Shown in pieces: positions 14,111 through 60,970 of a DNA stretch of 64,000 nucleotides. Numbering within the stretch: position 1 is the stretch's first letter; the number at the start of each line of letters is the position of its first letter. The stretch lies in NCBI GenBank assembly GCA_028279755.1, contig JANQNB010000010.1:92963-156962 (forward strand). Direction: 5' to 3'. The stretch comes from Candidatus Nanoarchaeia archaeon (GTDB taxonomy: Archaea; Nanobdellota; Nanobdellia; Woesearchaeales; UBA525). The notes below the pieces were generated by a model, which saw nothing but the letters and a program-made list of their open reading frames with translations, did not search any database and was not told the DNA's origin. The translations under genes were made by a program, and so were the position numbers.

Positions 14111-14114
14111 AAAT

Positions 14115-20001: not shown

Positions 20002-20092
20002 CTTCTGACATGCTATGCCTCCTCCAGAACTCGCTGGAGTGATTGCTCACCCCCTCTTTTTGGTCAGGAATCTGTTTGGAGTATTTAATACA

Positions 20093-24178: not shown

Positions 24179-24182
24179 GCCG

Positions 24183-42073: not shown

Positions 42074-42137
42074 TACTGAATAGTAGATATTCGACACTAT
42101 AATAAATATTTCATTCGAAAATACGACAAATGAGGAA

Positions 42138-42170: not shown

Positions 42171-43184
42171 ATGGACAAGCGAGACCTCCAATTGATGGAA
42201 ATCCTCGCGCAAAACTGCCGGATTTCCCACACCACACTAGCACAAGCGCTCAGAGTCTCGAAAGACACAGTCGCATACAAGATCAAGAAGCTGGAGGAAA
42301 CTGATTACCTTACCCAATACGTCCTGTTCATTGATGCGCGCGTCCTCGGACTAACAAGATATCACTTGCTGATCCAGTTCGACGCAGGTATAGACAAGCA
42401 AGCAACGTACGACAAGATCATCAACCATAAAAATGTCATGTGGGTGAACACCTTCATCGGTCGCTTCGACATCCAGATCATAGTCGATGCTCATGACGGC
42501 TTTCATCTCAACAAGATACGGGAAGAGCTCTTCGAACTCTGCGAACATAAGGTGAAGGAATACATTGTGTTGACCTGTCTCTACGATCTCGAATTCACGC
42601 AGCTCAACCCAGTGCTTGATCTGAAAACACCTTTCCAAAAAAAACTTGATCATTCTTTCAGCGAACTCCTCACGACAAGGAATTTTCCTGTCAAACCCAC
42701 GTTTGTCAAATACACACCAACAAAGACTGAAACTGAAATCCTGAAAATCCTAGCAGATAATCCTCGTGAATCATTGACAAACATCAGCAGACAACTGAAA
42801 ATCGACAGGAACACAGTAAAACAGCGTATCATCAATCTGATCAAGAATAAAGTCATCATCAACTTTGGCGCAATTCCAAACTTGTCAAAGCTGGGTTTCG
42901 TAACATATTACATGCTGGTGAGAATTGCGCAAGATACTCCTTATGAGGTCTTCAAGAAGCCCTTTACCAAGCTGCAGAACATCTTCTACGCTGGCAGGAT
43001 GATTGGTGATTATGACATGATCCTCTATCTCAACGCACGAACTCCTGAAGAGCTCAACTCCAGCATCGAATTGTTCAAAGCAGAGATAGAACAGCACATT
43101 GTCCACTACGACCTCCTTGTCCAAGACAAAGTGCATTACTGGCGCCAGTTCACGCCCGGAATCTATGAAGGATTGCAACATTAA
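42171..43184 (+). CDS. Tandem Lrp/AsnC-family transcriptional regulator (two HTH+RAM modules fused)
   Basis: Module 1: MDKRDLQLMEILAQNCRISHTTLAQALRVSKDTVAYKIKKLEETDYL… + RAM-like. Module 2: …TETEILKILADNPRESLTNISRQLKIDRNTVKQRIINLIKNKVI… + RAM-like. Both are AsnC-type HTH signatures. Confidence 0.75.
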   Translation: MDKRDLQLMEILAQNCRISHTTLAQALRVSKDTVAYKIKKLEETDYLTQYVLFIDARVLGLTRYHLLIQFDAGIDKQATYDKIINHKNVMWVNTFIGRFDIQIIVDAHDGFHLNKIREELFELCEHKVKEYIVLTCLYDLEFTQLNPVLDLKTPFQKKLDHSFSELLTTRNFPVKPTFVKYTPTKTETEILKILADNPRESLTNISRQLKIDRNTVKQRIINLIKNKVIINFGAIPNLSKLGFVTYYMLVRIAQDTPYEVFKKPFTKLQNIFYAGRMIGDYDMILYLNARTPEELNSSIELFKAEIEQHIVHYDLLVQDKVHYWRQFTPGIYEGLQH

Positions 43185-46636: not shown

Positions 46637-47113
46637 ATGCAAGTCAACGACAAGCTCAAGACGAAAGGCTGGTCTGCCAAGGAGATCAAGCACGCACACC
46701 GTGTGTTAAAACGGGCTGACAAGAAGAAGCACCCGGCCTACAAGTTCTTGGAAGTGGCGGTCTTCTGGGCCCTGCTCTTCATCACCGTGCTCGGCATGTT
46801 CCTGATCAGCCTGGTCATCATGCCCCTGCTTCTCGTGCTGCCGCTCGGCCTGCTCATCCTCATCCTTGCCATCTTCGGATTGTGCCTCGGCTCCTTGTTC
46901 GCCATCCTCATTCCTGATATCGAATGGCTCGAGAAGAAGCATCACGCGTTTAACATCATCATCCTGGCGGCGCTTGCCGTGCTGAACGTCTGGCTGATCG
47001 TCACGAAAGTGGACGCGATCGCCGGCAGCGAGCATCCCGGCCTGCTCCTGGGCGCGATCTTCGCCCTGGCTCTCTTGCTCCCCTACATATTCCATCTCTG
47101 CACGCGAAAATGA
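46637..47113 (+). CDS. Small membrane protein (3-4 TM), hypothetical
   Basis: Started at the internal Met MQVNDKLKTKGWSAKEIKHAH…; the upstream part of the track ORF overlaps the previous gene and is Arg/His-rich junk. Confidence 0.45.
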   Translation: MQVNDKLKTKGWSAKEIKHAHRVLKRADKKKHPAYKFLEVAVFWALLFITVLGMFLISLVIMPLLLVLPLGLLILILAIFGLCLGSLFAILIPDIEWLEKKHHAFNIIILAALAVLNVWLIVTKVDAIAGSEHPGLLLGAIFALALLLPYIFHLCTRK

Positions 47114-47502
47114 CACTCACTGACTGGGCGACCGCCTATATCAAGCACCGCGACCTGTTCGAGCGGAAAATCGCACGCATCGAGCAAAAGGAACAGGAAC
47201 TCCTCATAACGCACAAAGACGACTCTGTCCATCCCTGTTTTGTCCTCGACACCCTCGACGAACCCATACTGGAGAAACTCGGCAGAATCCACATCGTCAC
47301 CAAGAACCTGAAAGACAACGTCGCGTTCGTCGCGAAGCACTGGAAGGAATTCTCGCAGCACGAAGGACTCAAGCTCATCTTCGCGAACGAAGCGCGCAAT
47401 GAGAAATGGGTTCTGATCCCGCACGGCCATGCCAAGATTGCCGATCCGGCAAGCCTGAAAACTGGTCTCTTAGCGATGCACGACGCAGTGCCAGAAGGCT
47501 AA
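47110..47502 (+). CDS. Hypothetical cytoplasmic protein (130 aa)
   Basis: ATGA overlap with the preceding gene; no recognisable motif. Confidence 0.45.
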   Translation: MTLTDWATAYIKHRDLFERKIARIEQKEQELLITHKDDSVHPCFVLDTLDEPILEKLGRIHIVTKNLKDNVAFVAKHWKEFSQHEGLKLIFANEARNEKWVLIPHGHAKIADPASLKTGLLAMHDAVPEG

Positions 47503-48404
47503 TTCTCCAGGCTGGAGTCATGCACTGGGAGTTCTGGCTGTGGTGGCTCTCGTGGCGGCGCCTGCCTCTTCTTCTCGAAGATGAAGGCGAGCACAGCCAC
47601 GATGATGAAAGCCGCGATGAGTCCCATCCAGAGAATCATGCGCAGCTGGCTTTTCTCAGGTGCTTCAACAGGGGTTTCGATCTCGTCAACAACGCTTCCG
47701 GTCGACGCTTCCGGCGCAGTCTCCTCTGGCGGCGCCACGATGATCGTCTCGTTCGGCTCTGGCTCAGTCTCGTTCGTTGGCCATTCGAACTGCTCTTCCA
47801 GCTCTTCCATCTCGAAGTCAGCGCCAGCCTGATCGACCTTGATGACCCTGATGAGGATATCGTTGACTGTGTCAGCGTCGAGATCGACCTCCTTCTCCTC
47901 ACCTTCAGCAACCTCAACCTCAAGCGGCTCTGATTCGAACAGGAACGTAACGACCTTGTTCACGATGCGCTTGATCGTCACCCGATGGCTGTGCGTGCCG
48001 ACAGTGAAATCCCTGCTGGTCTGCAACGAGAGCCGCACCGGCGCAGGCGTCTCGCTCAGCACGAGATCTGCGAATTCAGCGCCGCCTCCACCCCCACCAC
48101 CCCCGCTGGGGATGTCGACAGTCTGGTTGGAGTCATTCGTGGGGCTCGCAGTCGCGAGCGCGGTGAGGAAACCGACTGTGCCTTCATACCCGCCACCGCT
48201 GCCGATCGCGACAGGGCTTGTCGTGAAACTGTAGCGCCCGGTGTAATTGCTGCTGTTCAGCTCGCCGCCAGACAAGGAAGTGGTGAACAAAGGGACTGTG
48301 TAATTGCCCCCGCTCGCGTTGATCGCAGTCGCGACAGGAAGCGCAAGAAGGAAGAGAAGCACAATGATTACACGCATGTTCCGTTGCCCCCGATCACCTC
48401 CCAC
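47499..48404 (-). CDS. Secreted, C-terminally membrane-anchored protein with poly-Gly stretch and acidic region
   Basis: Signal-like MRVIIVLLFLLALPVATA (internal to M1). N-glyc sequons, 'GGGGGGGG', and a C-terminal TM LRMILWMGLIAAFIIVAVLAFIF + KKRQ. Immediately downstream of the giant surface-protein gene. Confidence 0.5.
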   Translation of the reverse strand: MGGDRGQRNMRVIIVLLFLLALPVATAINASGGNYTVPLFTTSLSGGELNSSNYTGRYSFTTSPVAIGSGGGYEGTVGFLTALATASPTNDSNQTVDIPSGGGGGGGGAEFADLVLSETPAPVRLSLQTSRDFTVGTHSHRVTIKRIVNKVVTFLFESEPLEVEVAEGEEKEVDLDADTVNDILIRVIKVDQAGADFEMEELEEQFEWPTNETEPEPNETIIVAPPEETAPEASTGSVVDEIETPVEAPEKSQLRMILWMGLIAAFIIVAVLAFIFEKKRQAPPREPPQPELPVHDSSLEN

Positions 48405-51400
48405 GCGGTGCTGTTGTAGAAGCAGAGGGCGTTGGAACTGTCGACATAAAGATCGCCCAGACCACCGGCTCCTGGAGCGCTAGCACGTGGCGTCAGGGAA
48501 AGCACATCGTTGATTGTCACATTATTTGTTGAATTGATCATTCCCGTCGAATTGGTCCAGCCGGCAGCGCTGCTCTGATACGGCACGCTCGTCAGGTAGG
48601 TCGCGTTGCCGAGTGTTTCGTTCCATGCGAGCACGCCGCTGTTGTTGTAGAGCCATTCGCTTCCTGTGATGCTCCATTTGCTGCCGCTGCCACCGACGGT
48701 GCTGAGGCAAGTCGTGCTGTTGATGCAGATGTCACTTGTCGCGTTGATGACGCCCACGACATGCAATGCAGTCTGCGGGGAAAAGGTGCCGATGCCGACA
48801 TTCCCGCCAAGCACAGTCAGGTTACCAGTGCTGATGTTCACGTCAAGATTTGTCCAGATCTGCGTCGTCGTGTTCGACCAGCCAGCTGCACTGTTCTGGT
48901 ATGGCACGCTCGTGAGATAGGTGCTGTTCGCGAGCGTTTCGTTCCATTCGAGTATTCCTGAGTTGTTGATGAGCCATTCGCTTGTGCTGATGTCCCAGAC
49001 AGTGTCTGTGCTGCCGCTTTGGTTGCAGAGTCCGTTAGTTGGTGTGCATACTTGGCTGCCGTTGACTGTCAGGTTCTGTGTGAATGCCCAGGTTCCAGTG
49101 ATGTTCTCGTTCTGTGCGAGGAATGGCACGAGGCTGAGATTTGCTGCCCATAATGGGTCGCTTTCTGTGTAGCTGGTGAGGTATCCTGCTGCGCTGTGGT
49201 TGCCCCACGCGTATGCCGTGTCCCAGCTTGTCTTGTTGTAGCCGGAATAGTTCGCTGCCCAGAGCGGGTCGCTTTCTGTGTAGCTCGTCAAGTAGGTTGC
49301 GTTTCCTCGTGTGTAGTTCCAGTCGAGGACACCGCTGTTGTTGATGAGCCAGCCGCTTGTGGTGATGTTCCATTTGCTGCCGCTGCCACCGACGGTGCTC
49401 AGACAGGTCGTGCTGTTGATGCAGATGTCGCCTGTCGCGTTGATCGTGCCGATGACATGCAACGTACTGTTTGGGTCCGACGTACCGACTCCGATGAAAT
49501 TACTGCCGTTCTCGAAACTGAGCACGTCGTAATTGGAAGCATTCTTCACGAGTAGGTCGCCGTTGATCGTCTGGAACTCCCATTCCTGGTTCCCACCTGA
49601 CATGAAGGTGAGACCGTGGCCATTGTTGGCGCTGTTCGCATCGATGAGGACATAGACGCTGCCAGCCGAGCTGAAGAAGCGATGATTGAGACCCTGCACA
49701 TCGAGTTCGTAGCTTGGCGTGTTGGTGTTGATTCCCACCCTGCCGTTTTTGTTGTCGACGAACAGATTTGGTTCCAGCAAGCTACCATCAAAGCCGATGC
49801 TGACATTGGTCGAGTTGCTGACAAGCGAAATCAATGAGCTCGTGTTCTGCCAACCGCCGGTGCCGTCTGCGCTTCCTCCGCTTGCGTTAATCTCGATGGT
49901 GCTGCCGCTTCTCGTGACTGTCACGCCAGAGCCGCCGGTAAGGTTGACGGTCGTACCGTTGGTGATGCTTGTGCTGCCACTCGTGCCGCTAGCTGCGAGG
50001 AGCCAGCCTGTGTAGTTGCCGCCTCCGCCGCTTCCGTTGCACAGGCCGTTGTTCTGCGTGCACACTTGGCTGTCGTTGACGTAGAGCGTTCCGGTGATGT
50101 TTGTTGTGCTTGCGTTGAGGTAGATGTCGCCGCCTGCTGAATAGATCGCCCAGTTGTTGTCTGCGCCTGCGACGTTGTCGAGGTAGATGCCGTAGAGGTT
50201 GTGCGTGCCAGCGCCGGCGTTGTCGATGTGACCGATGTTGAGGTGCAGCCCGTAAGTGTTGATCGTTCCGCCGGTCGCGCCGGTGCGGTTCGTAACGCTA
50301 GCGCGAAGTGCGTAGGTGTTATCAGTCCCTGAAGAGATTGGCGCCCTATTGACGACGTAGAAGTGTCCGGCTGATGTATTGCCATTCCCAATCGTGGAGC
50401 TGCCCCTGTCGGCCCACGCCTGAATGCCTGTTGTTGTATCATTCGCGTCCCAAGCTGCAGCTCTGATACCGTAGATATCGTCGACAGAACCGCTGCCTGT
50501 ATTTGCGGCAAAGCTGTCCATGGCATACATGATGGTGACATTGCCAGAGCCTTGGTGCCGGATGTCGTTGTAGATGCCCGCGATCTCGCCGATGTTCTGC
50601 GAGTTTGCGCTGTGTGTGAAGATCTCATTGTCGATGCCGAAGAAGCTCTGCGCCGTAGCGTCAGCTTGTGGACTGAGCAGGTGGTAATTGATGATGCCTT
50701 CTGTGTACCCGGCAGTGAGGTTTGTGTGGTTCTCACCAATATTCAGCGTGACATCCACAACGCCAGGCCAGAGGACCAAGATTTGATCGATCGATGCGTC
50801 GCTACCGAGCGCCATGTGCTCGGCCACGTCGAGCGTGCCGTTGATGCTGACGTTCAGACTCGTATTGGTCTGTGTCGAGCCGTTTGTCCAGCCGCCGGTG
50901 CCGTTTGCGGAGCCGCCGCTGCACAAGCCATTGCTTGCGGTGCAGACGCGGTTGCCTGATTCCACAAAGAGCGAGCCTGAAGCGTTGACATACGCCACGG
51001 TGGTGTTCGTGCCGTTCTTCCACTCAGTCAGATTGGCGGCTTGAGAAGCAACACCCCTGATGGCAAGAGGTACGACAGTAGTATTCATCGTCTCGATCTC
51101 TACTTGCGCGGTAGGAGCGGTTTCGACCACGCCCAGCTTACCATCACTGAGCACGGTGAGATACCTATCAGTTCCGACGTATGGTCGTATCTGGAAAAGC
51201 TCTGCTGTTTGTCCATTCGCTCCGCGAATAACAAAGGTTTTCTTTGACACATTCGTCGAGCCTGCAGTTGTTCTCGCATCGCTGACTGGAGTCGTGCTTC
51301 CCAAGCCAATTCTGTTATTGATGGGATCTACGAAGAGTAAATCGAAGTCATCGTGGCTGCTGAACACCAGCCCTCCAGTGTTTTGTTGGTGGAGCGCGAC

Positions 51401-52453
51401 GAAATCATCGCTGCCGGATTGTGCGTTCTTGAACACTACTGACCAATACGACTGGCTGGGCACCTCAAAGGCTGCGACGGTACCGATGCCGCCCCAACTT
51501 CCATTTGTTCGGTTAACATGCAAGCCTCCCTGAGGATTAGACGTGCCGATACCGACATTCAAGGTTGTTGATGTGTTCTGGCTGCTGTTGGTCCATCCGC
51601 CGGTGCCGTCTGCGCTGCCACCTGATTGGTTGCACAAGCCGTTTGCTGGCGTGCAGACTTGCGAGCCGTTCACCCAGAGCCGTGAGTTGTTGCCTGAGAA
51701 GTTGCCAGAACCGACCACGTGGAGTGCTTGAGTCGGACTGCTCGTGTTGATGCCTACTCTACCTGTTCCTGATTCGAGGAAGAGCACTGTGCCAGCGCTG
51801 CCGAAGATGTCTTGAAATGTCAGATGCCGGTTTCCAGCATAGATTCTCCATTCCTCTGCCGCTGCCCCGTAGAGTCTGAACCCGTGCCCGTTGTTTGCGC
51901 TGCCTGATTCAATCGAAATGTACGCGCTGCCAGTCGGCGATAAAACCTGGATCTGATTGAACGTGTCGCCCTGGAATGTTAGGAGATTGCTACCTCCCCC
52001 GTTCACTGTGACTTCTCCAGTGATGTTCACGTCCTGCGTTGTTGTCGTCATGGTCCCGTTCGTGCTCCAGCCTGTGACTGTGCTCTCGTTCACCAGACTC
52101 TGATTGTTGATCAAGCCAAGGGAGGAATACCAGGTGAGCCGTTCGCTGCCGTCGAAGTCAAGATCGGTGCCGTCGATCGCGTAATCCTTCCAGTACTGCT
52201 TGCCGAACTCAGCATTAGTCAAATTTACCTGTACGTTCCACGAGCCATTCACGATCGCGCCAGTATAGGTGTTATTGAAGAGCGCAGTCCCGCCAGTGGC
52301 CGCATCCCAGAGTGTGATGGTCAAATCTGCGCTCGCCACTGTCGTGCCGTTGAGCGTCACGCCGCTGCCTTGGTCAGTGAAGAAGACATCGAGCGCCATG
52401 ACAGGCGTCACGAGCATGAGAAACATGAAGAGTATCCAGAGCTGTCTCACCAT
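48368..52453 (-). CDS. Giant (1361 aa) secreted repeat-rich cell-surface protein (possible S-layer/adhesin-like)
   Basis: Signal peptide MVRQLWILFMFLMLVTPVMA. Dispersed repeats '…V(N/E)GSQVCTP(A/T)NGLCNQSGG(S/T)(A)DGTGGWTN(S/G)S…' and '…LHV(V/I)G.(I/G)N(A/F)…' occur at least 4 times, with abundant NxS/T sequons and very high Thr/Asn/Gly/Ser content. Confidence 0.65.
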   Translation of the reverse strand: MVRQLWILFMFLMLVTPVMALDVFFTDQGSGVTLNGTTVASADLTITLWDAATGGTALFNNTYTGAIVNGSWNVQVNLTNAEFGKQYWKDYAIDGTDLDFDGSERLTWYSSLGLINNQSLVNESTVTGWSTNGTMTTTTQDVNITGEVTVNGGGSNLLTFQGDTFNQIQVLSPTGSAYISIESGSANNGHGFRLYGAAAEEWRIYAGNRHLTFQDIFGSAGTVLFLESGTGRVGINTSSPTQALHVVGSGNFSGNNSRLWVNGSQVCTPANGLCNQSGGSADGTGGWTNSSQNTSTTLNVGIGTSNPQGGLHVNRTNGSWGGIGTVAAFEVPSQSYWSVVFKNAQSGSDDFVALHQQNTGGLVFSSHDDFDLLFVDPINNRIGLGSTTPVSDARTTAGSTNVSKKTFVIRGANGQTAELFQIRPYVGTDRYLTVLSDGKLGVVETAPTAQVEIETMNTTVVPLAIRGVASQAANLTEWKNGTNTTVAYVNASGSLFVESGNRVCTASNGLCSGGSANGTGGWTNGSTQTNTSLNVSINGTLDVAEHMALGSDASIDQILVLWPGVVDVTLNIGENHTNLTAGYTEGIINYHLLSPQADATAQSFFGIDNEIFTHSANSQNIGEIAGIYNDIRHQGSGNVTIMYAMDSFAANTGSGSVDDIYGIRAAAWDANDTTTGIQAWADRGSSTIGNGNTSAGHFYVVNRAPISSGTDNTYALRASVTNRTGATGGTINTYGLHLNIGHIDNAGAGTHNLYGIYLDNVAGADNNWAIYSAGGDIYLNASTTNITGTLYVNDSQVCTQNNGLCNGSGGGGNYTGWLLAASGTSGSTSITNGTTVNLTGGSGVTVTRSGSTIEINASGGSADGTGGWQNTSSLISLVSNSTNVSIGFDGSLLEPNLFVDNKNGRVGINTNTPSYELDVQGLNHRFFSSAGSVYVLIDANSANNGHGLTFMSGGNQEWEFQTINGDLLVKNASNYDVLSFENGSNFIGVGTSDPNSTLHVIGTINATGDICINSTTCLSTVGGSGSKWNITTSGWLINNSGVLDWNYTRGNATYLTSYTESDPLWAANYSGYNKTSWDTAYAWGNHSAAGYLTSYTESDPLWAANLSLVPFLAQNENITGTWAFTQNLTVNGSQVCTPTNGLCNQSGSTDTVWDISTSEWLINNSGILEWNETLANSTYLTSVPYQNSAAGWSNTTTQIWTNLDVNISTGNLTVLGGNVGIGTFSPQTALHVVGVINATSDICINSTTCLSTVGGSGSKWSITGSEWLYNNSGVLAWNETLGNATYLTSVPYQSSAAGWTNSTGMINSTNNVTINDVLSLTPRASAPGAGGLGDLYVDSSNALCFYNSTAWEVIGGNGTCV

Positions 52454-52539
52454 ACCAACCCATGCGTTTTCCGCATCACGCCTTTATATAGTTATCCACC
52501 CTGACAAACTATTTAAACGCCCTGGTGTAGGGGTGCTGC

Positions 52540-53862
52540 ATGGCCTATGACATCGTTGTCGGGCGCAACAAGCGCGACACGAAGAAATACGGGACTGAAG
52601 GCACGATCTATCTCGGCAAGCACTACGTGAAGATGGGCCGAACTACGAGCTTGAGCAATAAGGTCTATCTCGACATGATACGCAGCCACGTCGTGTTCGT
52701 CTGCGGCAAGCGCGGCGGCGGCAAGAGCTACACGATGGGTGTCATCGCCGAAGGCATGGCTGACCTGCCAGAGCACATCAGGCAGAACATCAGTATCATC
52801 ATGCTGGACACGATGGGCATCTACTGGACCATGAAGTACCAGAACATGAAAGACAAAGAACTGCTTGGTGAGTGGGATCTCAAGCCGCACCAGCTCGATC
52901 CGATGATCTTCACGCCGAAAGGCTTCTACAACAAGTACAAGGAGGAAGGCATTCCGACAGACAAGCCCTTCAGCATCAAGCCAAGCGAGCTCCAAGGCAC
53001 TGACTGGACAACGACGTTCGACGTCAACCCGAACGATCCCATCGGCGTGCTGATCCAGCGGACGATCCACGCGTTCCGGGACGCGGACGATAACGATTAC
53101 GACATCGACGACCTCATCGCTGCTATTGAGAAAGATCCTGACGCGTCCAAGGACGTGAAGAACGCCGCGAAAACGCACTTCGAGGCAGCGAAAGGCTGGG
53201 GCGTGTTCGACCGGCAAGGCACAACGCTGAAAGAGCTGGCAGCGCCAGGCCAGATCACAGTCCTTGATGTGAGCTGCTACGCGACTGAAGAGAACGGCTG
53301 GGCGATCAAGGCCTTGGTGATCGGGCTCGTCGCGCAAAAATTGTTCAATCAGCGCATGCTCGCGCGAAAAGACGAGGAATTCCAGGATGTGGAAGAGCAG
53401 ACCAGCTATTTCTCAGAGGAGAAAGGCGACAAGCAGGACTTTCCCATGGTCTGGCTTGTTGTGGATGAAGCGCATGAGTTCATGCCGAACAAAGGAAAGA
53501 CTCTCGCGACCGATCCGCTCGTCACGATCCTGCGCGAAGGCCGGCAGCCAGGCATCTCCTTGATCCTCGCGACCCAGCAGCCGGGCAAGATCCACACCGA
53601 TGTCATGACGCAATCTGATACGATTATCGCCCATAGAATTACTGCGAAGCTCGACACTGACGCCTTGGGCATGCTGATGCAGAGCTACATGCGCTCGGGT
53701 TTGGACGTCGAGCTTGATAATCTCCCAAGAACCAAGGGCGCTGCTCTCATTCTCGACGACAATAACGAGAAGATGTACCCGATACAGATCCGGCCGAGAT
53801 TCACCTGGCACGGCGGCGAAGCCCCGACCGCGCTGAAGAAGAAAAAAGAACTGTTTGATTAA
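52540..53862 (+). CDS. HerA/FtsK-superfamily P-loop ATPase (DUF87-type)
   Basis: Walker A 'VFVCGKRGGGKSYTMG' at ~aa 55; Walker B 'VWLVVDEAHEF' at ~aa 300 (the long A-B spacing is typical of HerA/VirB4-like ATPases); 'ILATQQP' is sensor-like. Confidence 0.7.
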   Translation: MAYDIVVGRNKRDTKKYGTEGTIYLGKHYVKMGRTTSLSNKVYLDMIRSHVVFVCGKRGGGKSYTMGVIAEGMADLPEHIRQNISIIMLDTMGIYWTMKYQNMKDKELLGEWDLKPHQLDPMIFTPKGFYNKYKEEGIPTDKPFSIKPSELQGTDWTTTFDVNPNDPIGVLIQRTIHAFRDADDNDYDIDDLIAAIEKDPDASKDVKNAAKTHFEAAKGWGVFDRQGTTLKELAAPGQITVLDVSCYATEENGWAIKALVIGLVAQKLFNQRMLARKDEEFQDVEEQTSYFSEEKGDKQDFPMVWLVVDEAHEFMPNKGKTLATDPLVTILREGRQPGISLILATQQPGKIHTDVMTQSDTIIAHRITAKLDTDALGMLMQSYMRSGLDVELDNLPRTKGAALILDDNNEKMYPIQIRPRFTWHGGEAPTALKKKKELFD

Positions 53863-54152
53863 CGAACTGCACGCTTTGGCGGATACGCAGTCGCGGGTGA
53901 TGGTCTGTCCCGTATTAGCTGCCTTTCGCGGTCCAGTCGTCCTTTCGCTGCCTGCCACGCTTCCCGTAATTCTGGACTATAGGGCCGATCCCAGAAGGCT
54001 CGTTCTGCGTGATGTGCTGTAACTACTGCTGTTCGATATGCATCCATGTTTTCCCCCCGTGTTACTGTGGCTGCGCGGACTTGCTGGTCATTTATATATT
54101 TGTCTAACAATTGACTTGGCGAAGCGTCCACAGCGCTCAAGGAATTGTTTGA

Positions 54153-54986
54153 CTAGGCGAGCTCGACGAGCCTGACCAGGTCATCGAGCGGAACGCGTGC
54201 TACCAATTCACCAAAGAACTGGAGGCTTCTGGCGTGGTCGAGTGTCTGCAACTGCTGTGAATCGACCACCACTGAGGTGATGAGATTTCTGAGATTGGTG
54301 ACTTCTGAGATGATGCGTTCCGGGCTCATGAGATTAAGGCTGCAGACGATGATGCTATGTGCGGCGCGTGCGTCTTTTGGCAGGTCAGCGTGTTCACTGC
54401 CGAGCCTGTCTTCTACGTATCCTGCTGTCTGTTCGAGCAGCCTGTCCATGTCGAGAAAGTCGCTGAGGGGAAACAGTCCGAGCCTGCCATTCATGGCGCC
54501 GGTTCTCATGTACTCGGCGATGTTGCCAGCCCATCGTTGCGCTTTGTAGGGAAGCGTCAATGCGCTGATCCTCGGCCCGAGCTCTTGCGGCAGTGTCGTG
54601 GTGAAATAGTATGTGAAGGTGCGGAGCGATTCCTGCGCCAGTATGGTATCGCGACCGGCTCCGTGGAGAAGACGCCATGCGCTTCGTTTCAGCTCTCGCA
54701 AAGCCGTGATGTTTGTTGGCATCCCGTACTCTTCGTGAACAGTTCGTGTCACTTGGTATGCAGCCCATGCTTGATCATTTTCACGGTCCAAGGTGTCCTG
54801 TTTGATTGCCCTTGCCACACCTTGCGCATCTATGAACATGTTCCGCAATTCCAAGATATCGAACGCGCGTATATCATAGGGCCTGTTCATTTCAGCGTTC
54901 GCGAACAAGCCGTTCAGCCTGCTTGCCGCGACTTTCATGTCCAAGGCATACCGCCCTGCATCGACCCCCATGACCGTAGGAGCCAC
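54153..54986 (-). CDS. Hypothetical protein (277 aa)
   Basis: Clean ORF, no recognised motif. Confidence 0.45.
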   Translation of the reverse strand: MAPTVMGVDAGRYALDMKVAASRLNGLFANAEMNRPYDIRAFDILELRNMFIDAQGVARAIKQDTLDRENDQAWAAYQVTRTVHEEYGMPTNITALRELKRSAWRLLHGAGRDTILAQESLRTFTYYFTTTLPQELGPRISALTLPYKAQRWAGNIAEYMRTGAMNGRLGLFPLSDFLDMDRLLEQTAGYVEDRLGSEHADLPKDARAAHSIIVCSLNLMSPERIISEVTNLRNLITSVVVDSQQLQTLDHARSLQFFGELVARVPLDDLVRLVELA

Positions 54987-55072
54987 CTTGGTGTTTTAAT
55001 GCTTTACCATTCCGGAGGGTTGACAATATAAACGGCCAAAGCTTTATTAAAAATCCCAATATCCCCCAGGCT

Positions 55073-55372
55073 ATGGCATTCAGCAGACGCTTTCCGCGCG
55101 ATGTCAAGGGCTCACCCTATCCGGTCTGGGAAGAAGTCTATCTTTCAGCAGAGGAAGAGCGAAAGCTGGAGGAAGACGCTCGAAAAGAGAACCTGAAGAT
55201 CATGCAGGAATGCCTGGCCGACGCGAAGACGATCGCCTCGGAAAAGCATGACGAAGAGGACATCGTCGCGCTCGCCATCGCCTTGTTCGAGAAGCGAGCG
55301 AGCCACGCCGTCTACTGGAAGGAAGAGGCGGTCAAGGAGAAGTTCGATAAGGCCTATCGTCCTAGTTCTTGA
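55073..55372 (+). CDS. Small hypothetical protein (99 aa), charged/helical
   Basis: ORF in an otherwise non-coding gap; weak. Confidence 0.3.
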   Translation: MAFSRRFPRDVKGSPYPVWEEVYLSAEEERKLEEDARKENLKIMQECLADAKTIASEKHDEEDIVALAIALFEKRASHAVYWKEEAVKEKFDKAYRPSS

Positions 55373-56378
55373 GCTTGAACGCGCGTAAGTGCTCGCTGGC
55401 GTATTCGCTGATGATCGCGTTCTTCGCGTGCATCGCAACCAGGTCCTGTTCCTTGATGATGCTGCGATGCTCTTTCAGGTATTTCTTCAGCTTGTCGATA
55501 TATTCGAAGCAGGAATGGACGAGGTCTGTCTGCGTGAGGAAGCCGACGACCTTCTTGTCGTCGACGACAAGCAGGCGACGCACCTTCTCGAAGAGCATGA
55601 TCATGTTCGCGTCGAAGATGTTGATGTCTGACGGGATGACTTTCACTGGTGATTTCATGACTTCCGGCAGTGTCTGGATGTCGATCTTGCCGCCAGTGTC
55701 GTAGAACTGCGCCACGACATCGTATTCTGTGAAGATCCCGACGACCTCGCCTTTGTCCGTCACCGGCAGGCTGCTCATGTTCTTCTTGGTCAGCAAGGCT
55801 TTTGCCGTGGTGAACCCCTTGCCCTTGTCGATCGTTTGGAACTTGGGGTTCATCACGTCCTTGACCAGGAAGGGCACTTTATCCATGCGCGCAACCGCGT
55901 GCACACGCTCGTAGATGGCTTTGCTCAGGTCGGTCTGCGTCACGATGCCCGCGATTCTGCCATCCTTATCCACGATCACGAGCTTCCTGATGTGCTTGTC
56001 CTTGAGGATGGCCTTGGCTTCGAGCAGGCTCGCTTCCGGCGGCATGGCCTCGACTGCGCAGTCCTTGCGGACCTTCTCGCCGCCGCGATACATGCAACTC
56101 ATGATATCCTTGACTTTCAGCTTGAAGACCGCGCTGCTCAAGGGCACTTTGGTGATGAAATCGCGCTCGGTGAGGATGCCGATCGGTTTGCCCTCAGCCT
56201 CGACCACCAGACCAGAAACAGCTTCGCCGATCATCACAGACGCGGCGTCGATCACGCTCTTGTCAGCGCCGATCGTGACGACATAATCGGTCATGATCTC
56301 GCCGGCAGGCGTGGTGAGCAGGTTCTCCACGCCTTTGTGTGCCTTGCGCAGGAGTTTTCGTCGGCGGATACCAAACAT
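55362..56378 (-). CDS. CBS-domain protein (four CBS motifs)
   Basis: Repeated '…IMT..V.T…GLVV…G..G.G(I/F).T..D…' CBS pairs across 338 aa. Confidence 0.75.
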   Translation of the reverse strand: MFGIRRRKLLRKAHKGVENLLTTPAGEIMTDYVVTIGADKSVIDAASVMIGEAVSGLVVEAEGKPIGILTERDFITKVPLSSAVFKLKVKDIMSCMYRGGEKVRKDCAVEAMPPEASLLEAKAILKDKHIRKLVIVDKDGRIAGIVTQTDLSKAIYERVHAVARMDKVPFLVKDVMNPKFQTIDKGKGFTTAKALLTKKNMSSLPVTDKGEVVGIFTEYDVVAQFYDTGGKIDIQTLPEVMKSPVKVIPSDINIFDANMIMLFEKVRRLLVVDDKKVVGFLTQTDLVHSCFEYIDKLKKYLKEHRSIIKEQDLVAMHAKNAIISEYASEHLRAFKLKN

Positions 56379-56424
56379 AGTCCTGTCTGCGGATCAGTGG
56401 TATTTAAGAATATTGAAAAATGGT

Positions 56425-57252
56425 TTACGGAGCAGTCACGTCCGCGTCCTTCACGAAGTTGTACGCGATGTCGTGGTACTCGACGCCACCCTCGAGGTCA
56501 GTGCGCGCCTCGTCAGCGTAGTATGCGACGTGCATCGGGACACCCATGAAGGGATCGAGGTACACCTCGTAGTACGAGCCGTCCATCTCGAATTGCACTA
56601 CTTTGACTTCGCGGCTCTCGTGCTGGCGTGTCTCCTTGATGAAGGCGCTGTTCGGGATCCTATCGACCCAGTCAAGGGGGTACTCGATGTCGTAGTCGCT
56701 GAACTTGGCGGTGCGTTCTTCCCCAGGCGTGGAGCAGATGCTTGACCGGTCGCTGAGACAGTAGGCCTTGACTGTCTTGGTCGCCAGGTTCAGGTAGATG
56801 GTGTCGACATGCGTCTCCCTGTCGTATTTCGGCGGCAGGATGGTCTCGACCTTGACCAGGTCTCCCCTGACTGAATACGTGTCGCGGGCGAGCGTCACGA
56901 TCCCGGTTGAGGTCACCTCGATCGGCGCGTGGACGAACTGCATGCTCTGCACTGTCCCGGCCTTGTCGAGCAGGTCGCCGATCACCGGATCCATGGAGCT
57001 GGGAGCGGCGTCCTGATCACCCGTCGAGTCATCTGAATCGTCAGTGCCAGCGTCATCGCTCGGCAGGTCGCTGAAGTCTGTCGGCAGGTTCTCCATCTGC
57101 CGCTCGAGCTCGTCAAGCTGTTCCTGCGCCTGCTGCACCATCGGGCAGTCCTCAGCCTTCTTCACGAATGAGCCGTCCGGGCATCTCGTCGGTTTGACAA
57201 CGCAGGCTGTCACGAAGAGCGCAATAACCAGTAATGCTATGATCGCTTTCAT
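56425..57252 (-). CDS. Secreted lipoprotein-like protein carrying one 'CPDGSFV' cysteine motif
   Basis: Started at MKAIIALLVIALFVTAC (lipobox-like) inside the GTG track ORF. '…KPTRCPDGSFVKKAEDCPM…' shares the CPDGS motif with the 985..2148 and 2307..5108 products; an acidic Asp/Ser-rich linker follows. Confidence 0.55.
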   Translation of the reverse strand: MKAIIALLVIALFVTACVVKPTRCPDGSFVKKAEDCPMVQQAQEQLDELERQMENLPTDFSDLPSDDAGTDDSDDSTGDQDAAPSSMDPVIGDLLDKAGTVQSMQFVHAPIEVTSTGIVTLARDTYSVRGDLVKVETILPPKYDRETHVDTIYLNLATKTVKAYCLSDRSSICSTPGEERTAKFSDYDIEYPLDWVDRIPNSAFIKETRQHESREVKVVQFEMDGSYYEVYLDPFMGVPMHVAYYADEARTDLEGGVEYHDIAYNFVKDADVTAP

Positions 57253-57297
57253 ACAATCCACCCCCTGAGAAGACTATAGAATGCGGAGCCCTTTATA

Positions 57298-57543
57298 TTA
57301 CTTTTTGCGATGCTCAGCGCGCCGCACTTTGGGATGGTGCACCGCGAGCTCGACCAACTCTTCCTCGCTCGTGCCCGCGCCTGACATGCTGACAAGGCTT
57401 GCGATGAAGAGGATGATGAAGAAGATGAGCAGCGTGACGCCCCAGGTCTTGTTCCAGCCGTAGACCTGGAACACGGTGACGAAGAAGCCGATGATGCTGA
57501 TCAACATCCACTCGTGCGGGAGCGGAGCCATCTTCAAAGCCAT
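57298..57543 (-). CDS. Small membrane protein (~81 aa, 2 TM)
   Basis: Started at the internal Met MALKMAPLPHEWMLISIIGFFVTVFQVYGW…LLIFFIILFIASLVSM…; the longer track ORF overlaps the convergent + gene. Confidence 0.4.
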   Translation of the reverse strand: MALKMAPLPHEWMLISIIGFFVTVFQVYGWNKTWGVTLLIFFIILFIASLVSMSGAGTSEEELVELAVHHPKVRRAEHRKK

Positions 57544-57645
57544 GGTGCACCTCTCTCTATGATGGATAAGGATTTGGAGGGTTTTAATGATTTTCGGTTT
57601 CCACAACGCACTGTGCATAAGAAGCCAGGAGTCCTTTTTCAGGGC

Positions 57646-58137
57646 ATGGCGACCCTGATAAACATCCACGGACCTGTCGCTGTCGGCAAGAGCACGACAG
57701 TCGAGAAACTGCTTCCTCAGCTGAAAAACTATGTGTTCATCGACCGCGCCTACATCAAGCATCACCTCAGCGCACTTGGGAGAGAGGAACGCAAAGTCGT
57801 GTCGAAGAAAGCGGTGTACCTCCTACTTGAGCAATGTATTTACCGTGATGCAAATATTCTCACTCAAGAACTGAATCCTGAGAGCCTTTACAGACATGTT
57901 GGCTTGCTGCTCGAAAAGCACAAATATCGCTTCCTCAGCTTTCGCCTTGCAGCCCGGTGGGAAACAACCATCGCGAGAAGCAGGGCCAGGCAGAAGAACG
58001 CTCACGAGGGACGGATGCGCAAGATCTGGGACAGTTATCCGCAGCCCTCAAAGTTTGACATCATCATCGACACTGAACAGCTTTCCGAGGAGGAAGTGGT
58101 CGAGCGGATCCTCGCTCACACCTTGTACACAGTGTAG
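57646..58137 (+). CDS. P-loop NTPase / small-molecule kinase-like protein (AAA_33/zeta-toxin-like fold)
   Basis: Started at MATLINIHGPVAVGKSTTVEKL (Walker A GPVAVGKST); …FIDRAY… is Walker-B-like; 164 aa. Confidence 0.5.
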   Translation: MATLINIHGPVAVGKSTTVEKLLPQLKNYVFIDRAYIKHHLSALGREERKVVSKKAVYLLLEQCIYRDANILTQELNPESLYRHVGLLLEKHKYRFLSFRLAARWETTIARSRARQKNAHEGRMRKIWDSYPQPSKFDIIIDTEQLSEEEVVERILAHTLYTV

Positions 58138-59297
58138 CTCCAGATTGCGTAGACGCCCATGATCGCGCCGATAATGATGAAGAGCGTGTTCATCGGCAGG
58201 AAGAACAGGACCAGGCCGCCGATGAGCTTGCCGAGCATGGAGAACACCTGCGTGTGGGTCATGAACGGCCCGTAAAAGCGATTCTCCTCTTCCTGGCTCA
58301 CCGTCCGGAAGAAGTAGGTCTCGCGCGTTCCCTCGATGAAGGCAGCGCCGATGCTGGCGATGATGAAGAAAGTGATGACCATGAAAACAGAGGAAGCGAT
58401 GCCGGCGAGATAGGCGAAAACGGCGATGATGCCATAGCCTGCGATGAACATCCAGCGGATGGTGTGCTTGTTCGTGACGCGACCGATCGGATATTCCAGC
58501 AGCACGAGGGGCACGACCACGCCGAAGAGCGTGTACCCAACCCATTCCCCGCCAAGGCCGTTCCGGATGATGACAAGCGGCAGGTAGATGTAAACGATCG
58601 CCCAGTAGATGTTGATGCCGCCGGCGATCGCGTAGGCGTTGAGCCGCTCTTTTTTCCTGAAGAACTCGACGAGGTGGCCGAGGCATCGCTTCAATGTCGA
58701 GTAGTCGCCCTTGTGATGGTGGAAGTCCCTGATCTTCAATGCCCTGTACATCAGCACGGTGAGCAATGCGAAGAGCGCCGAAAACAGGAAGGTGGCATTC
58801 GTGCTGTAGCGGGCGATGACAAAGCCGCCGAGCAAGGGGCCGACGAGCCAGCCCACGTTGCTCATGACGTATCTGATGCCTTCAGCGCTTCCCAGCTCGT
58901 CGCTCGACGAGCTGTCCCGCACGAGCACGCCGAGCGTTGCTGAATAGATCGTCTGGCAGAAGACTGTGAAGACCGCGACGATGAGCAGGACGATGATGTT
59001 GTGGGTGAAGGCGAACGCGACATAGCCCAGCACCAAACCGAGGAGACTTGTGCCGATGATCCTTGTTTGCGCATTCCGTTCGAGGAGCGGCGCTGCGAAG
59101 ATGTAGTAGAGCAAGGCCAGGAGGTTCAGGGAGCCGCTGACCAGGCCGACGAGCGAAGCGTTGTGCAGGAAGGAATCGAGATGCACTGCCCAGACCGCGT
59201 CGAAGATGGCGAAGCCGATGCAGACGAACAAATGTGCCACTGACACCCTGAAGAACTGGCTCTGCAAGACGCGTCGTTTGTGCAGATTTGGGATCAT
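58116..59297 (-). CDS. MFS transporter
   Basis: 12 predicted TM segments; …GPLLGGFVIARYS… resembles MFS signature motif A. Confidence 0.8.
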   Translation of the reverse strand: MIPNLHKRRVLQSQFFRVSVAHLFVCIGFAIFDAVWAVHLDSFLHNASLVGLVSGSLNLLALLYYIFAAPLLERNAQTRIIGTSLLGLVLGYVAFAFTHNIIVLLIVAVFTVFCQTIYSATLGVLVRDSSSSDELGSAEGIRYVMSNVGWLVGPLLGGFVIARYSTNATFLFSALFALLTVLMYRALKIRDFHHHKGDYSTLKRCLGHLVEFFRKKERLNAYAIAGGINIYWAIVYIYLPLVIIRNGLGGEWVGYTLFGVVVPLVLLEYPIGRVTNKHTIRWMFIAGYGIIAVFAYLAGIASSVFMVITFFIIASIGAAFIEGTRETYFFRTVSQEEENRFYGPFMTHTQVFSMLGKLIGGLVLFFLPMNTLFIIIGAIMGVYAIWSYTVYKV

Positions 59298-59401
59298 CCG
59301 CGCAGTCCTTGTTCTTGCTCCTTATAAGGTTTATTCAATTCGTTCAAGCACATTTCCTTTGTCTTATGTCTAGCGAAAATAATTAATACACAAGCTGACG
59401 A

Positions 59402-59815
59402 TTGCTCATTATGAAAAACAAACTCATCATTGAAAAGGCGTCTGCGGAAGACCTCGGATGGGTTCGGACGAAGCTCCGGGAGAATGAGTGGGGATATGAC
59501 AGCTTGGATCACGTGTTTGTTGCGAAAACAGACGGGAAACTGATAGGTATGGCCCGGGTGGAATTCTTCCGGAACAAAGCGTTAGCGACAATTGCAGGGG
59601 TGTATGTCGAGCCGGAAGCGAGAGGAAATGATATTGGCTTTCAGCTTATACATGCAATTCTTGAAGCGTTTCCGGAAGTGATTGAATGGTATTTGGCAGG
59701 TCACTCCTGGATCGAGGCCTATTACTCAAAAATGGGATTTGTAAAGATCCAAGCAGTGATTCCTGAGCTGAAAAGAAGCTTCGATAATCAGGTTTTCATG
59801 GTTTTAAGGAGATGA
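59402..59815 (+). CDS. GNAT-family N-acetyltransferase
   Basis: …KLIGMARVEF…IAGVYVEPEARGNDIGFQLIHAILE… is the acetyl-CoA-binding motif A (Q/RxxGxG/A pattern). Confidence 0.7.
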   Translation: MLIMKNKLIIEKASAEDLGWVRTKLRENEWGYDSLDHVFVAKTDGKLIGMARVEFFRNKALATIAGVYVEPEARGNDIGFQLIHAILEAFPEVIEWYLAGHSWIEAYYSKMGFVKIQAVIPELKRSFDNQVFMVLRR

Positions 59816-59833
59816 GAGTGTCCTTAGCTATTC

Positions 59834-60970
59834 TCAACTGAACTCTTCAGGAGTCGCCAGGTATTTCTTCAGGTTCTTCCGCGCTGCTTCGCGCTTCTTC
59901 TGGTGGTTCGACAGGCAGACGTTGAGCTTGTCGATGAGGATGGTTTTCAGCTCGCCGGAGAGGAGCTTTCCTGCCTTGTAGTCCTTGTAGTATTGTTCGA
60001 GTTTCTTGTCATCTTCTTCGAAGAATGTGAGGTATTGATACGCGACGTCGATGTCAGGGTTGCCGCCTTTCTTCCGGTGTTCCTCGACTGTGTCCTTGCC
60101 GCCGGAGAACGCGTACTTGTTGATCTTCTTCTTCACTGTCTTCGGATCATCCGTCGTCCAGATCACCTGGGTGTCAGGATCGCCGTCAGTCGTGCTCATC
60201 TTGCCCTCGGCGCTTTGCAGTCCAGGCAGGAAGCGCGCGTGCAATATTGCCGGCTTGGGATAGCCGACTTTCTGGATGATGTCCCGTGTCACTCTGAAAT
60301 GCGGATCCTGGTCGATCGCGAGCGGGATCAGGCAGGGTAATTTCTTTTTTGCCGCAATGCTCGGCAGAAAGGCGGGTACCGCTTGCATGCACGTGTAGAA
60401 GATGCTGCCCACGTTGGTGCTGTTGTCGAAGCCGAACACCGCTTTGGTCGTGGAAAACGTCAAGCGCTTCGCGATCTTGATCGCTTCCGGGTACATGACG
60501 CCGCTCATCTTGGTGTCGATGATGATGCGCAACTGCTCTGGCGTAAACCCGAGCGCGATGATGTCGAGCGCGTTCTCAAGCGCGTAATTCGTCGCTTCCT
60601 CAAGGGACAGGCCTTCCTTGAACAGGAACTTCTCGTCGTCAGTCATCTGGAAGTACAGCTTCAGTTTCAGCTTTTCAGCCAGCCACTTGGTGAGGATCCA
60701 GGGGATCATATGCCCCAGGTGGGTCTTGCCGCTCGGGCCGCGCCCGGTATAGAGGAATCCCTTGTTGCCTTTCTCGTATTCCTTCAGGAACCAGTCCAGA
60801 TCACGATGAGAAAAGAAGACCTTGCGGCGAATGAGGTGGTGCAGCTCGCCGGTGTGCTTCTCCAGGCGTTTGAGCAGCTTGGCATCGAGTTCTTGCGTGC
60901 CGAATTCCTTCACCAGCCGCTTATAATCGATCTCGCCTGAGACCTCCCACGGCGTTACAACAAAGGCCAT
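59834..60970 (-). CDS. trpS: Tryptophanyl-tRNA synthetase (archaeal/eukaryotic type)
   Basis: 'GRGPSGKTHLGHMIPWILTKWLAEKLKLKLYFQMTDDEKFLFK' carries the HIGH-class motif plus the QMTDDEK block characteristic of euk/archaeal TrpRS (human: …[36 protein letters not shown]). KMSKS-like 'KMSTT'. Confidence 0.85.
   Translation of the reverse strand: MAFVVTPWEVSGEIDYKRLVKEFGTQELDAKLLKRLEKHTGELHHLIRRKVFFSHRDLDWFLKEYEKGNKGFLYTGRGPSGKTHLGHMIPWILTKWLAEKLKLKLYFQMTDDEKFLFKEGLSLEEATNYALENALDIIALGFTPEQLRIIIDTKMSGVMYPEAIKIAKRLTFSTTKAVFGFDNSTNVGSIFYTCMQAVPAFLPSIAAKKKLPCLIPLAIDQDPHFRVTRDIIQKVGYPKPAILHARFLPGLQSAEGKMSTTDGDPDTQVIWTTDDPKTVKKKINKYAFSGGKDTVEEHRKKGGNPDIDVAYQYLTFFEEDDKKLEQYYKDYKAGKLLSGELKTILIDKLNVCLSNHQKKREAARKNLKKYLATPEEFS

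Follow-up and report, generated by a model that had tools for sequence, protein, structure and literature searches.

We examined a 64,000-nt stretch of the genome of a Candidatus Nanoarchaeia archaeon (contig JANQNB010000010.1; hereafter the window) and found that positions 47499-52453 carry two overlapping genes, which we read as a strain-specific surface module consisting of a giant fibre protein and its probable membrane anchor that would serve attachment to a host or partner cell or to a surface. We put the probability of this reading at about 60%. The fibre gene (48368-52453, minus strand) encodes 1361 amino acids (aa), and the anchor-family gene that follows it (47499-48404, minus strand) encodes 301 aa from a GTG start codon or, probably, 292 aa from an ATG at 48377. 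They are flanked by a gene for a HerA-superfamily ATPase of 440 aa (52540-53862, plus strand) and, convergent with it, by a gene for a 277-aa protein (54153-54986, minus strand). An initial annotation of this DNA, made from its letters alone, had described these four open reading frames (ORFs), all of which are present with exact coordinates. The window is chromosomal DNA of an archaeon of the DPANN superphylum (Diapherotrites, Parvarchaeota, Aenigmarchaeota, Nanoarchaeota and Nanohaloarchaeota). Its gene content includes GyrA, PCNA, ScpB, a form-III RuBisCO/AMP-salvage cluster, an aminoacyl-tRNA synthetase and a tRNA of intron-containing length. Of the named homologues of the ATPase and the 1361-aa protein, the nearest are annotated as Candidatus Woesearchaeota, Nanoarchaeota or Pacearchaeota.

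The fibre protein starts with a signal peptide (aa 1-20, MVRQLWILFMFLMLVTPVMA; 52394-52453, minus strand, like all other parts of this protein), which is its sole hydrophobic segment and lines up with those of its homologues. The hydrophobicity profile displays no further transmembrane (TM) segment, and neither a lipobox nor an archaeosortase signal was found. The signal peptide is followed by a family-specific N-terminal domain, or N-domain (aa 21-119; 52097-52393), which we propose to be a cell-proximal docking domain, and by a mosaic fibre body (aa 120-1317; 48503-52096), which is marked by internal repeats, a match to the Protein Data Bank (PDB) entry 8ojn, matches to cyanophage genes and piecewise homologues. 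The C-terminal motif LSLTPRASAP...GDLYVDSSNALCFYNSTAWEVIGGNGTCV (aa 1318-1361; 48371-48502) contains Cys1344 and Cys1360 and also ends the homologues P0003, P0004, P0005 and P0006.

The body is composed of shaft motifs of the form GxVGI[GN]TxxPxxxL[HD]V, cysteine loops, GTGGWxN and YLTSYTESDPLWAAN modules and a SQAANLTEWKN module, with an 'xYG[IL]...' repeat region at its centre (about aa 541-790). The motif VC[TS]xxNGLC occurs four times in the protein, CINSTTC twice, GG[SA][AD][DN]GTGGW[TQ]N three times and the YLTS module four times, and the strict shaft pattern GxVGI[GN]TxxP has three matches alongside several degenerate copies. The 14 cysteines fall into seven pairs, namely four CTxxNGLC loops, two CINSTTC loops and one C-terminal pair. 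Although a full-length blastp comparison of the protein with itself returned the identity alignment only, chunked queries brought out many dispersed internal pairs with E-values down to 2e-31, and at the DNA level the repeat copies are 62-84% identical. The composition is high in G, T, S and N, and the protein carries 78 N-x-S/T sequons compared to 31.1 ± 4.8 in 1000 composition-preserving shuffles, an excess of about 9.7 standard deviations. The description of a giant secreted protein built from dispersed repeats, with dozens of N-glycosylation sequons, was thus borne out on each point.

The protein has no Pfam match and no Peptidase_S74 domain, and its sole match in the Pfam, NCBIfam, PHROG and PADLOC libraries is to phrog_5906, a family whose function is unannotated. 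Its modules are found elsewhere. A phmmer search of the PDB aligned the GRVGI(G/N)TxxPTxALHVxG motif to the shaft of Bd3182, a mosaic adhesive trimer (MAT) fibre of Bdellovibrio (8ojn). Fibres of this type are intertwined trimeric β-prism adhesins with an invariant cell-proximal N-domain (PMC10769870). The YLTSYTESDPLWAAN modules at aa 1030-1192 match cyanophage tail-fibre genes (best E-value 8e-10, tblastn). An exhaustive HMMER search with aa 163-1361 recovered 2041 representatives at E-values of at most 1e-3, 482 at most 1e-10 and 52 at most 1e-30, all of which match piecewise, in up to 24 stretches. Among these piecewise homologues, P0138 carries Peptidase_S74 and YadA_head domains, P0223 a Peptidase_S74 domain and P0137 collagen repeats; further homologues of the 1361-aa protein carry Mtd_N or collagen domains. 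Peptidase_S74, YadA_head and collagen repeats are hallmarks of trimeric fibres. Judged by the Bd3182 shaft match, the cyanophage matches and the piecewise homologues with S74, YadA_head or collagen domains, the protein is a mosaic of fibre modules drawn from a pool common to phage tail fibres and Bdellovibrio MAT fibres. Since S74 occurs in some of the homologues only and is absent from the protein itself, the latter would belong to the non-S74 type.

The two ends of the protein, which have no Pfam match, behave differently from its body: they are specific to the family. The domain at aa 21-119 is kept in named Woesearchaeota and Pacearchaeota proteins with 29 invariant columns (alignment A1, 300 aa), and it is present in 25 metagenome loci with a GC content of 31-62%, where it heads proteins of 270-2233 aa with differing bodies (LamG, dockerin-like, Hint or YadA-like). 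The AlphaFold2 model of this domain is a β-sandwich with a predicted local distance difference test score (pLDDT) of 64-82 per ten residues, and its structural neighbours are generic Ig/FN3-like folds only. The pattern of the last 44 residues (LxxTPxxxAPxxxxxGDxYxDSxxxxLCxYNSTxW...GxC) reappears at the C-terminal ends of some family members, and tblastn located this cysteine motif in L007 (in three genes), L029 and L032 as well. All named proteins that share the N-domain or the C-terminal cysteine motif belong to Woesearchaeota or Pacearchaeota. The Woesearchaeota contig L007 displays three tandem fibre paralogues of 1631, 1693 and 1051 aa with common N- and C-termini. The island in which these paralogues lie (L007/L008, JAPPOH010000014.1) also contains a ParE-like toxin pair, two Fic genes, a Bro-N gene and AAA_14/DUF4143 ATPases, and it looks like a variable or mobile region.

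The protein encoded behind the fibre gene has an N-terminal signal and, in the hydrophobicity profile, a C-terminal TM segment at aa 256-276, which makes it a type-I membrane protein. Its signal peptide (48324-48377, minus strand, as are the following elements) precedes a conserved motif ASGGNYTV...YEGTVGF (48168-48317), a linker of eight glycines (G8; aa 101-108, 48081-48104), a β-rich body, an acidic proline-rich stalk, the TM helix (47577-47639) and a basic cytoplasmic tail. The label "poly-Gly", which the initial annotation had given to this protein, applies to the single G8 run and is otherwise overstated, as glycine makes up 9% of the residues, glutamate is the most frequent one and the protein is mainly acidic. 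That it is secreted, TM-anchored, immediately downstream of the fibre gene and in overlap with it was confirmed. The overlap is 37 nt from the GTG start and 10 nt (ATGCGTGTAA) from the ATG at 48377. The latter is probably the start in use (MRVIIVLLF..., 292 aa); a Shine-Dalgarno-like GGAGGTGATC lies upstream of it, and it overlaps the stop codon of the fibre gene within ATGCGTGTAA. Because the genes overlap by 10-37 nt, they are probably co-transcribed and translationally coupled.

The pairing of these genes recurs in other genomes. In L007, a 383-aa anchor homologue (35% identity, E-value 2.6e-18) directly follows the three tandem giant paralogues and matches the layout of the window's protein (signal, conserved motif, Gly/Ser linker, body, TM helix and basic tail). 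Further homologues follow N-domain genes in L015, after a 16-nt gap, and in L021, at the end of a five-gene same-strand cluster. We built a hidden Markov model (HMM) from these four anchor N-termini (window, L007, L015 and L021) and ran it against the window and all non-redundant loci. It matched exactly five ORFs, each downstream of a same-strand N-domain gene; four of them are adjacent to it or overlap it, the exception being the one at the end of the five-gene cluster. The only member outside the training set, that of L032, lies about 25 nt after an N-domain gene and has the same architecture (E-value 4.9e-07). Of the nine loci whose N-domain gene is complete, five thus have an anchor gene. 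As the anchor family stands directly downstream of N-domain proteins at all five loci found, the fibre and anchor genes are a real pair, in line with the earlier view that the smaller protein belongs with the giant one; its role as the anchor is probable. The anchor family has no Pfam match. Single-sequence searches with the anchor found nothing in the Genome Taxonomy Database (GTDB) genomes, and a two-sequence alignment found nothing in the JGI metagenomes and, in the GTDB genomes, only the Woesearchaeota contig already known. The homologue in L015 (L015 11916-13361) has a cytoplasmic PRC-barrel domain past its TM helix (E-value 4e-7), and the L015 and L032 anchors share a cysteine-rich module (CxYNWxC...C...TC.N.G.C.G.E.KP) that is missing from the window's anchor.

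The pair is a strain-specific two-gene insertion beside a core gene. In the closest relative found (L001), whose ATPase is 91% identical at the amino acid level and whose flanks are 66-82% identical at the nucleotide level, the gene order is gyrA, three small genes, the ATPase, a 101-aa gene and a CBS-domain gene, with a tRNA synthetase further on. According to blastn, window positions 46647-47501, 52538-53855 and 55073-56294 correspond to L001 8919-9803, 9999-11316 and 11411-12662, respectively. Between these collinear segments, window 47502-52537, which contains the fibre and anchor genes (an insertion of about 4.8 kb), replaces 195 bp of L001, and window 53856-55072, which contains a 93-aa ORF and the 277-aa gene (about 1.1 kb), replaces 95 bp. 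In this comparison of gene order, a check that the initial annotation had suggested, the fibre, anchor and 277-aa genes are missing from an otherwise collinear locus. A third strain-specific segment, window 57529-59852 (about 2.2 kb), replaces 118 bp of L001 and holds an ORF of 163-207 aa with a lower GC content at third codon positions (GC3, 0.61) and a major facilitator superfamily (MFS) transporter. The search for an att-like site turned up a 15-nt direct repeat, AGCCCGAAGAGCCCG, on either side of the empty site in L001; the window has no counterpart of it. Within the 195-bp intergenic region (L001 9801-9969), this repeat flanks a palindrome, CCAAGTTTGCC...GGCGTCAGCCAAACTTGG, and the two may constitute a small element that is mobile or serves recombination.

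Across 49370-60431, the window agrees at 100% identity with a contig that was assembled independently (Logan SRR20820740, L011) and that breaks off in the internal repeat of the fibre gene. Because the two are identical there, the junctions on the ATPase side are not an assembly artefact. In remoter lineages, whose ATPases are 68-71% identical to that of the window, the order is ATPase, MFS transporter, 101-aa gene, CBS-domain gene and tyrosyl- or tryptophanyl-tRNA synthetase, without a giant protein. The 25 other N-domain loci and L007-L010 contain no homologue of the ATPase, and the ATPase loci from three other lineages contain no N-domain gene. The link between the surface protein and the HerA-like ATPase that their proximity had implied is not borne out by these separate distributions and by the synteny in L001. 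L001 has the same flanks but neither the fibre/anchor pair nor the 277-aa gene, so that no meaning can be read into the position beside the ATPase, which is accidental.

The ATPase itself was characterised as follows. Its Walker A motif (GKRGGGKS, aa 56-63, 52705-52728) and Walker B motif (VWLVVDEAH, aa 304-312, 53449-53475) are about 246 aa apart, and it matches the DUF87/HerA central domain PF01935 (E-value 1.5e-10), so that the earlier assignment to a 440-aa ATPase with a long, HerA-like Walker A-B spacing stands. In a Foldseek search with an AlphaFold2 model (predicted TM-score 0.76), the best matches were the archaeal HerA structures 9x1l of Thermococcus kodakarensis and 4d2i of S. solfataricus (E-values of about 1e-13, TM-scores of 0.53-0.58, 17-19% identity), and anti-phage HerA proteins ranked next. 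In the profile comparison, the protein fell far under all NCBIfam cut-offs for HerA, CedB and VirB4 (for example, 44.6 versus 970 bits for NF040819 and 40.9 versus 800 bits for NF040937), and the PADLOC HerA and mad8 profiles match it. More than 5,800 homologues, from DPANN archaea, were recovered at E-values of at most 1e-10; the best 120 of these are 65-91% identical and about 440 aa long, and an alignment of 32 homologues has a mean column identity of 70%. With homologues in this number and at this identity, and with flanks conserved in three lineages, its distribution is not patchy or island-like. The only consistent companion is a 99-aa protein (55073-55372, plus strand; the right edge of the 1.1-kb insertion), which is 52-74% identical in L001-L005 and always downstream of the ATPase. 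This companion is a helical protein of 99-101 aa, and in two lineages an MFS transporter intervenes with a 2-nt gap.

By its sequence and gene order, the ATPase is best described as a compact HerA-fold, vertically inherited core gene of Woesearchaeota-like DPANN archaea that forms a clade of its own. It is presumably hexameric and most plausibly a DNA translocase or helicase. It resembles archaeal HerA, a helicase of double-strand break repair (4D2I, 9X1L), and the anti-phage HerA ATPases in fold, DUF87 central domain and Walker A-B spacing, and differs from them in its length of only 440 aa, its conserved clade with a 99-aa companion and its neighbourhood, which contains no NurA, Mre11, Rad50, Sir2 or DUF4297. 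The adjacent co-directional effector gene of anti-phage systems (Sir2-HerA, DUF4297-HerA) is not seen here. The statement that no NurA- or Sir2-like partner is evident agrees with our Pfam and PADLOC scans and a NurA-like search of the window, none of which found a Sir2, DUF4297 or NurA partner; a faint NurA-like gene in L003 is about 9 kb from the ATPase and not adjacent to it. The possibility that this ATPase is a housekeeping HerA that adjoins nurA elsewhere is not supported, as it adjoins no nurA. Because it is highly conserved and its synteny is conserved, the ATPase is a core gene and not a defence gene, so that the defence role considered in the initial annotation is contradicted by conservation, synteny and the missing partner alike. 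Neither the fibre module nor the 277-aa protein is functionally connected with it. Literature searches found no description of this ATPase clade.

The 277-aa protein is an ORFan. Among 5.8 billion proteins it matched only itself; it has no Pfam, NCBIfam, PHROG, PADLOC, PDB or phage-genome match, in agreement with its listing as a neighbour of unknown function, and it gave no signal when checked as a NurA, Sir2 or DUF4297 protein. Its gene is absent from the syntenic site of L001, its composition is helix-favouring (13% L, 11% A, 9% R), and a coding-like GC pattern over the three codon positions suggests that it is a real gene. The protein is not a HerA partner.

Considering (i) the anatomy of the fibre protein, (ii) the homology of its modules, (iii) the conserved pairing of the two genes and (iv) the presence of the pair in one strain and not in its close relative, we propose the following model. 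The fibre would be exported by its class-I (Sec-type) signal peptide, would probably be heavily N-glycosylated and stabilised by its short disulfide loops, and would most likely be elongated and probably trimeric. Because it has no TM segment, lipobox or archaeosortase signal, another component must hold it, and the obvious candidate for this part is the type-I membrane protein, whose gene is probably translationally coupled to that of the fibre. The conserved N-terminal motif of the latter, carried on the flexible G8 linker and the acidic proline-rich stalk, may capture the Ig-like N-domain of the fibre, so that the variable mosaic shaft and tip would project outward and bind a ligand on a partner cell, a host cell or another surface. 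A DsbA/thioredoxin domain (E-value 7e-29) heads a 933-aa protein elsewhere in the window (2307-5108, minus strand), the rest of which is unannotated; this protein could be a candidate for extracellular disulfide formation in the cysteine loops. Host attachment, for which the initial annotation had named the giant protein a candidate, is a reasonable function, given the modules shared with the receptor-binding fibres of phages and Bdellovibrio and the strain-variable insertion, although it is still something that we infer. DPANN surface proteins evolve fast and are suspected to take part in host recognition (PMC6142677).

The closest parallel is the non-S74 subfamily of Bdellovibrio bacteriovorus MAT fibres (8OJN, 8ONB and 8ONC for Bd3182; PMC10769870). 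Both are secreted mosaic fibres of about 1000 aa that share the shaft motif GRVGIGTxxPTxALHVxG, both show expansion into paralogues with module swapping, and Bdellovibrio, like presumably the archaeon, relies on contact with other cells. In both, an N-terminal domain is proposed to lie next to the producer's surface; that of MAT fibres is invariant, and ours recurs only in DPANN proteins. The system described here differs in its archaeal origin, its heavy load of N-glycosylation sequons, its conserved C-terminal end and variable middle, where MAT fibres vary at their tips, and its co-encoded TM anchor candidate, where the surface receptor of MAT fibres is unknown. A tail-fibre-like adhesin is a known theme, and we regard the present system as a variation on it with a paired anchor. 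The pair constitutes a DPANN-specific family with uncharacterised, putative docking elements, and its anchor pairing is, as far as we could find, undescribed; literature searches returned no description of the N-domain/anchor family.

Several observations weigh against this model. The match to 8ojn is weak (E-value 5e-4 overall, independent E-values of 0.09 and 0.8 for the individual stretches) and is based on a short motif. An AlphaFold2 monomer model of the fibre, computed from a six-sequence alignment, is confident for the N-domain alone, with pLDDT below 40 at aa 100-300. Four of the nine complete N-domain loci have no recognisable downstream anchor gene, the contig of L014 stopping soon after the gene. 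The left junction of the insertion (47500) is outside the Logan L011 coverage (49370-60431). Finally, the source is a small-genome, Woesearchaeota-like DPANN archaeon, and its probably symbiotic lifestyle is deduced from the taxon alone.

The gene order and topology also recall a two-component surface layer (S-layer) of the kind formed by SlaA and SlaB in Sulfolobales (PMC11329633), in which a large secreted, TM-less N-glycoprotein precedes a smaller partner that carries a TM segment at its C-terminus; by analogy, the 1361-aa glycoprotein would be the canopy and the 301-aa protein the stalk. The extreme sequon density fits such an arrangement, and its logic, in which an anchor holds a canopy or a passenger, is likely similar. 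We nevertheless consider an S-layer unlikely, as neither protein matched a SlaA or SlaB entry in phmmer searches of all PDB chains and no other sequence similarity was seen, the repeats match no known S-layer domain, and the modules are of the trimeric-fibre type, with S74, collagen and YadA_head domains in homologues. Furthermore, one Woesearchaeota genome carries three tandem paralogues (1051-1693 aa) that share both termini, the family members span 270-2233 aa and carry passenger regions that are unrelated to one another, and the gene is missing at the syntenic site of a close relative (L001, that locus only), where an S-layer would be expected to have one or two lattice proteins per genome that close relatives conserve; the window's anchor also has no evident coiled-coil stalk. 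The modules shared with cyanophage tail fibres and phrog_5906, and the position of the pair in an insertion, could alternatively mean that an integrated virus or tailocin left the giant protein behind as a former tail fibre or receptor-binding protein. This is very improbable: the insertion comprises two genes only and lacks capsid, terminase and integrase genes as well as att-like repeats, neither the N-domain nor the anchor has a match in 2.9 million IMG/VR contigs, a class-I signal peptide and a TM-anchored partner fit a cellular surface protein, and the GC3 of the two genes (0.69-0.70) is near that of the flanking core genes (0.71-0.81). The likeness to cyanomyovirus and other Peptidase_S74-chaperoned tail fibres thus consists of the aa 1030-1192 modules, a modular, recombining architecture and homologues with collagen or S74 domains, whereas the gene considered here lies on a cellular chromosome without virion genes and encodes a Sec-type signal peptide and no S74 domain.

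We give hardly any credence to a single system of fibre, anchor, ATPase and 277-aa protein in which the ATPase would power the export or assembly of the fibre or serve HerA-type defence with the 277-aa protein as effector. The genes are adjacent, the fibre and ATPase genes diverge from a common 86-nt intergenic region, and the PADLOC HerA and mad8 matches could be read in this sense. However, in L001 the flanks of the ATPase are kept without the fibre, anchor and 277-aa genes, and remoter lineages are likewise; no ATPase lies near any other N-domain gene; and the identity among the best 120 homologues is the behaviour of a core gene. The NCBIfam matches of HerA type are all far below the curated cut-offs, and the 277-aa protein is a convergently encoded ORFan with no Sir2, DUF4297 or NurA signal. 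Diversity-generating retroelements are common in DPANN archaea, and an Mtd_N domain in one homologue together with a 212-nt internal DNA repeat of 80% identity raised the question of whether the internal repeats are template and variable repeats of such an element. Both copies are coding, the mismatches have no adenine-specific pattern and half of them fall at third codon positions, and no reverse transcriptase was found among the window ORFs scanned against Pfam. Given this mismatch spectrum and the missing reverse transcriptase, we rejected a retroelement target, which we hold to be next to impossible.

Returning to the fibre and its membrane anchor, a broader and more tentative proposition is that the N-domain and the type-I membrane protein together form an undescribed surface-display system of Woesearchaeota and Pacearchaeota, in which one stalk captures the N-domain of many passengers, and strains exchange these passengers among themselves and with viruses so as to redirect the recognition of hosts or partners. 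Capture would proceed via the anchor motif S..Y.V....G..GG...S.SY..RF...Y.G..GFF and might be a strand complementation, and the passengers would include phage-fibre-like shafts and dockerin- or LamG-bearing proteins.

The remaining features of the locus and of the window are as follows. The 86-nt intergenic region between the divergent fibre and ATPase genes (52454-52539) contains two A/T-rich TATA-like boxes, CTTTATATAG and CTATTTAAAC, which may be promoters to judge by their letters; scans for Sigma-70 promoters and terminators gave counts at or under shuffle expectation and were uninformative. The 93-aa ORF (53859-54140, minus strand), which the initial annotation did not mention, is probably spurious: its GC3 is 0.415 compared to 0.65-0.84 in the other ORFs measured, the Logan gene caller did not call it, and it has no family match in Pfam, NCBIfam, PHROG or PADLOC. 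The 99-aa companion and a 130-aa protein have no match in these four libraries either.

Outside this locus, six paralogous genes of 352-473 aa (8063-19471, minus strand) each end in a mobile domain of phosphoenolpyruvate-utilising enzymes (PF00391, E-values 1e-23 to 1e-28), and no domain was recognised in their N-terminal parts. This unusual tandem expansion is broken only by PCNA (9121-9858), short unannotated ORFs and an RNase J-like β-CASP gene (12495-13922). A cyclodipeptide synthase (41348-42097, minus strand; PF16715, E-value 7e-17), unexpected in a reduced DPANN genome, adjoins a double helix-turn-helix regulator of the Lrp/AsnC type (42171-43184). The archaeal AMP-salvage cluster (21831-25568, minus strand) comprises an IF-2B-family ribose-1,5-bisphosphate isomerase, an AMP/thymidine phosphorylase-like enzyme and a form-III-type RuBisCO large subunit. 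A 102-nt tRNA found with Rfam (20093-20194, minus strand; 45.7 bits, full model) was not reported by ARAGORN and overlaps a mechanically called ORF (19505-20188); it is probably an intron-containing archaeal tRNA. A 753-aa protein (28230-30491, plus strand) and a 673-aa protein (35593-37614, plus strand) have weak matches to DUF6055 and to a lamin-tail domain, respectively, which are typical of secreted and surface proteins, and the region is rich in candidate surface proteins.

The comparison with relatives removes a false lead: the HerA-like ATPase does not partner the fibre or belong to a defence system, but is a core ATPase of DPANN archaea, remarkable for its conservation, that deserves a study of its own. 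Little is known of how DPANN archaea recognise and attach to their hosts, and most of their large surface proteins lack annotation. The locus described here offers a testable anatomy for such proteins, with a proposed docking domain, a mosaic fibre and a dedicated membrane anchor, and the signatures of the N-domain and of the anchor motif can be used as HMMs to map modules of this kind over DPANN genomes.

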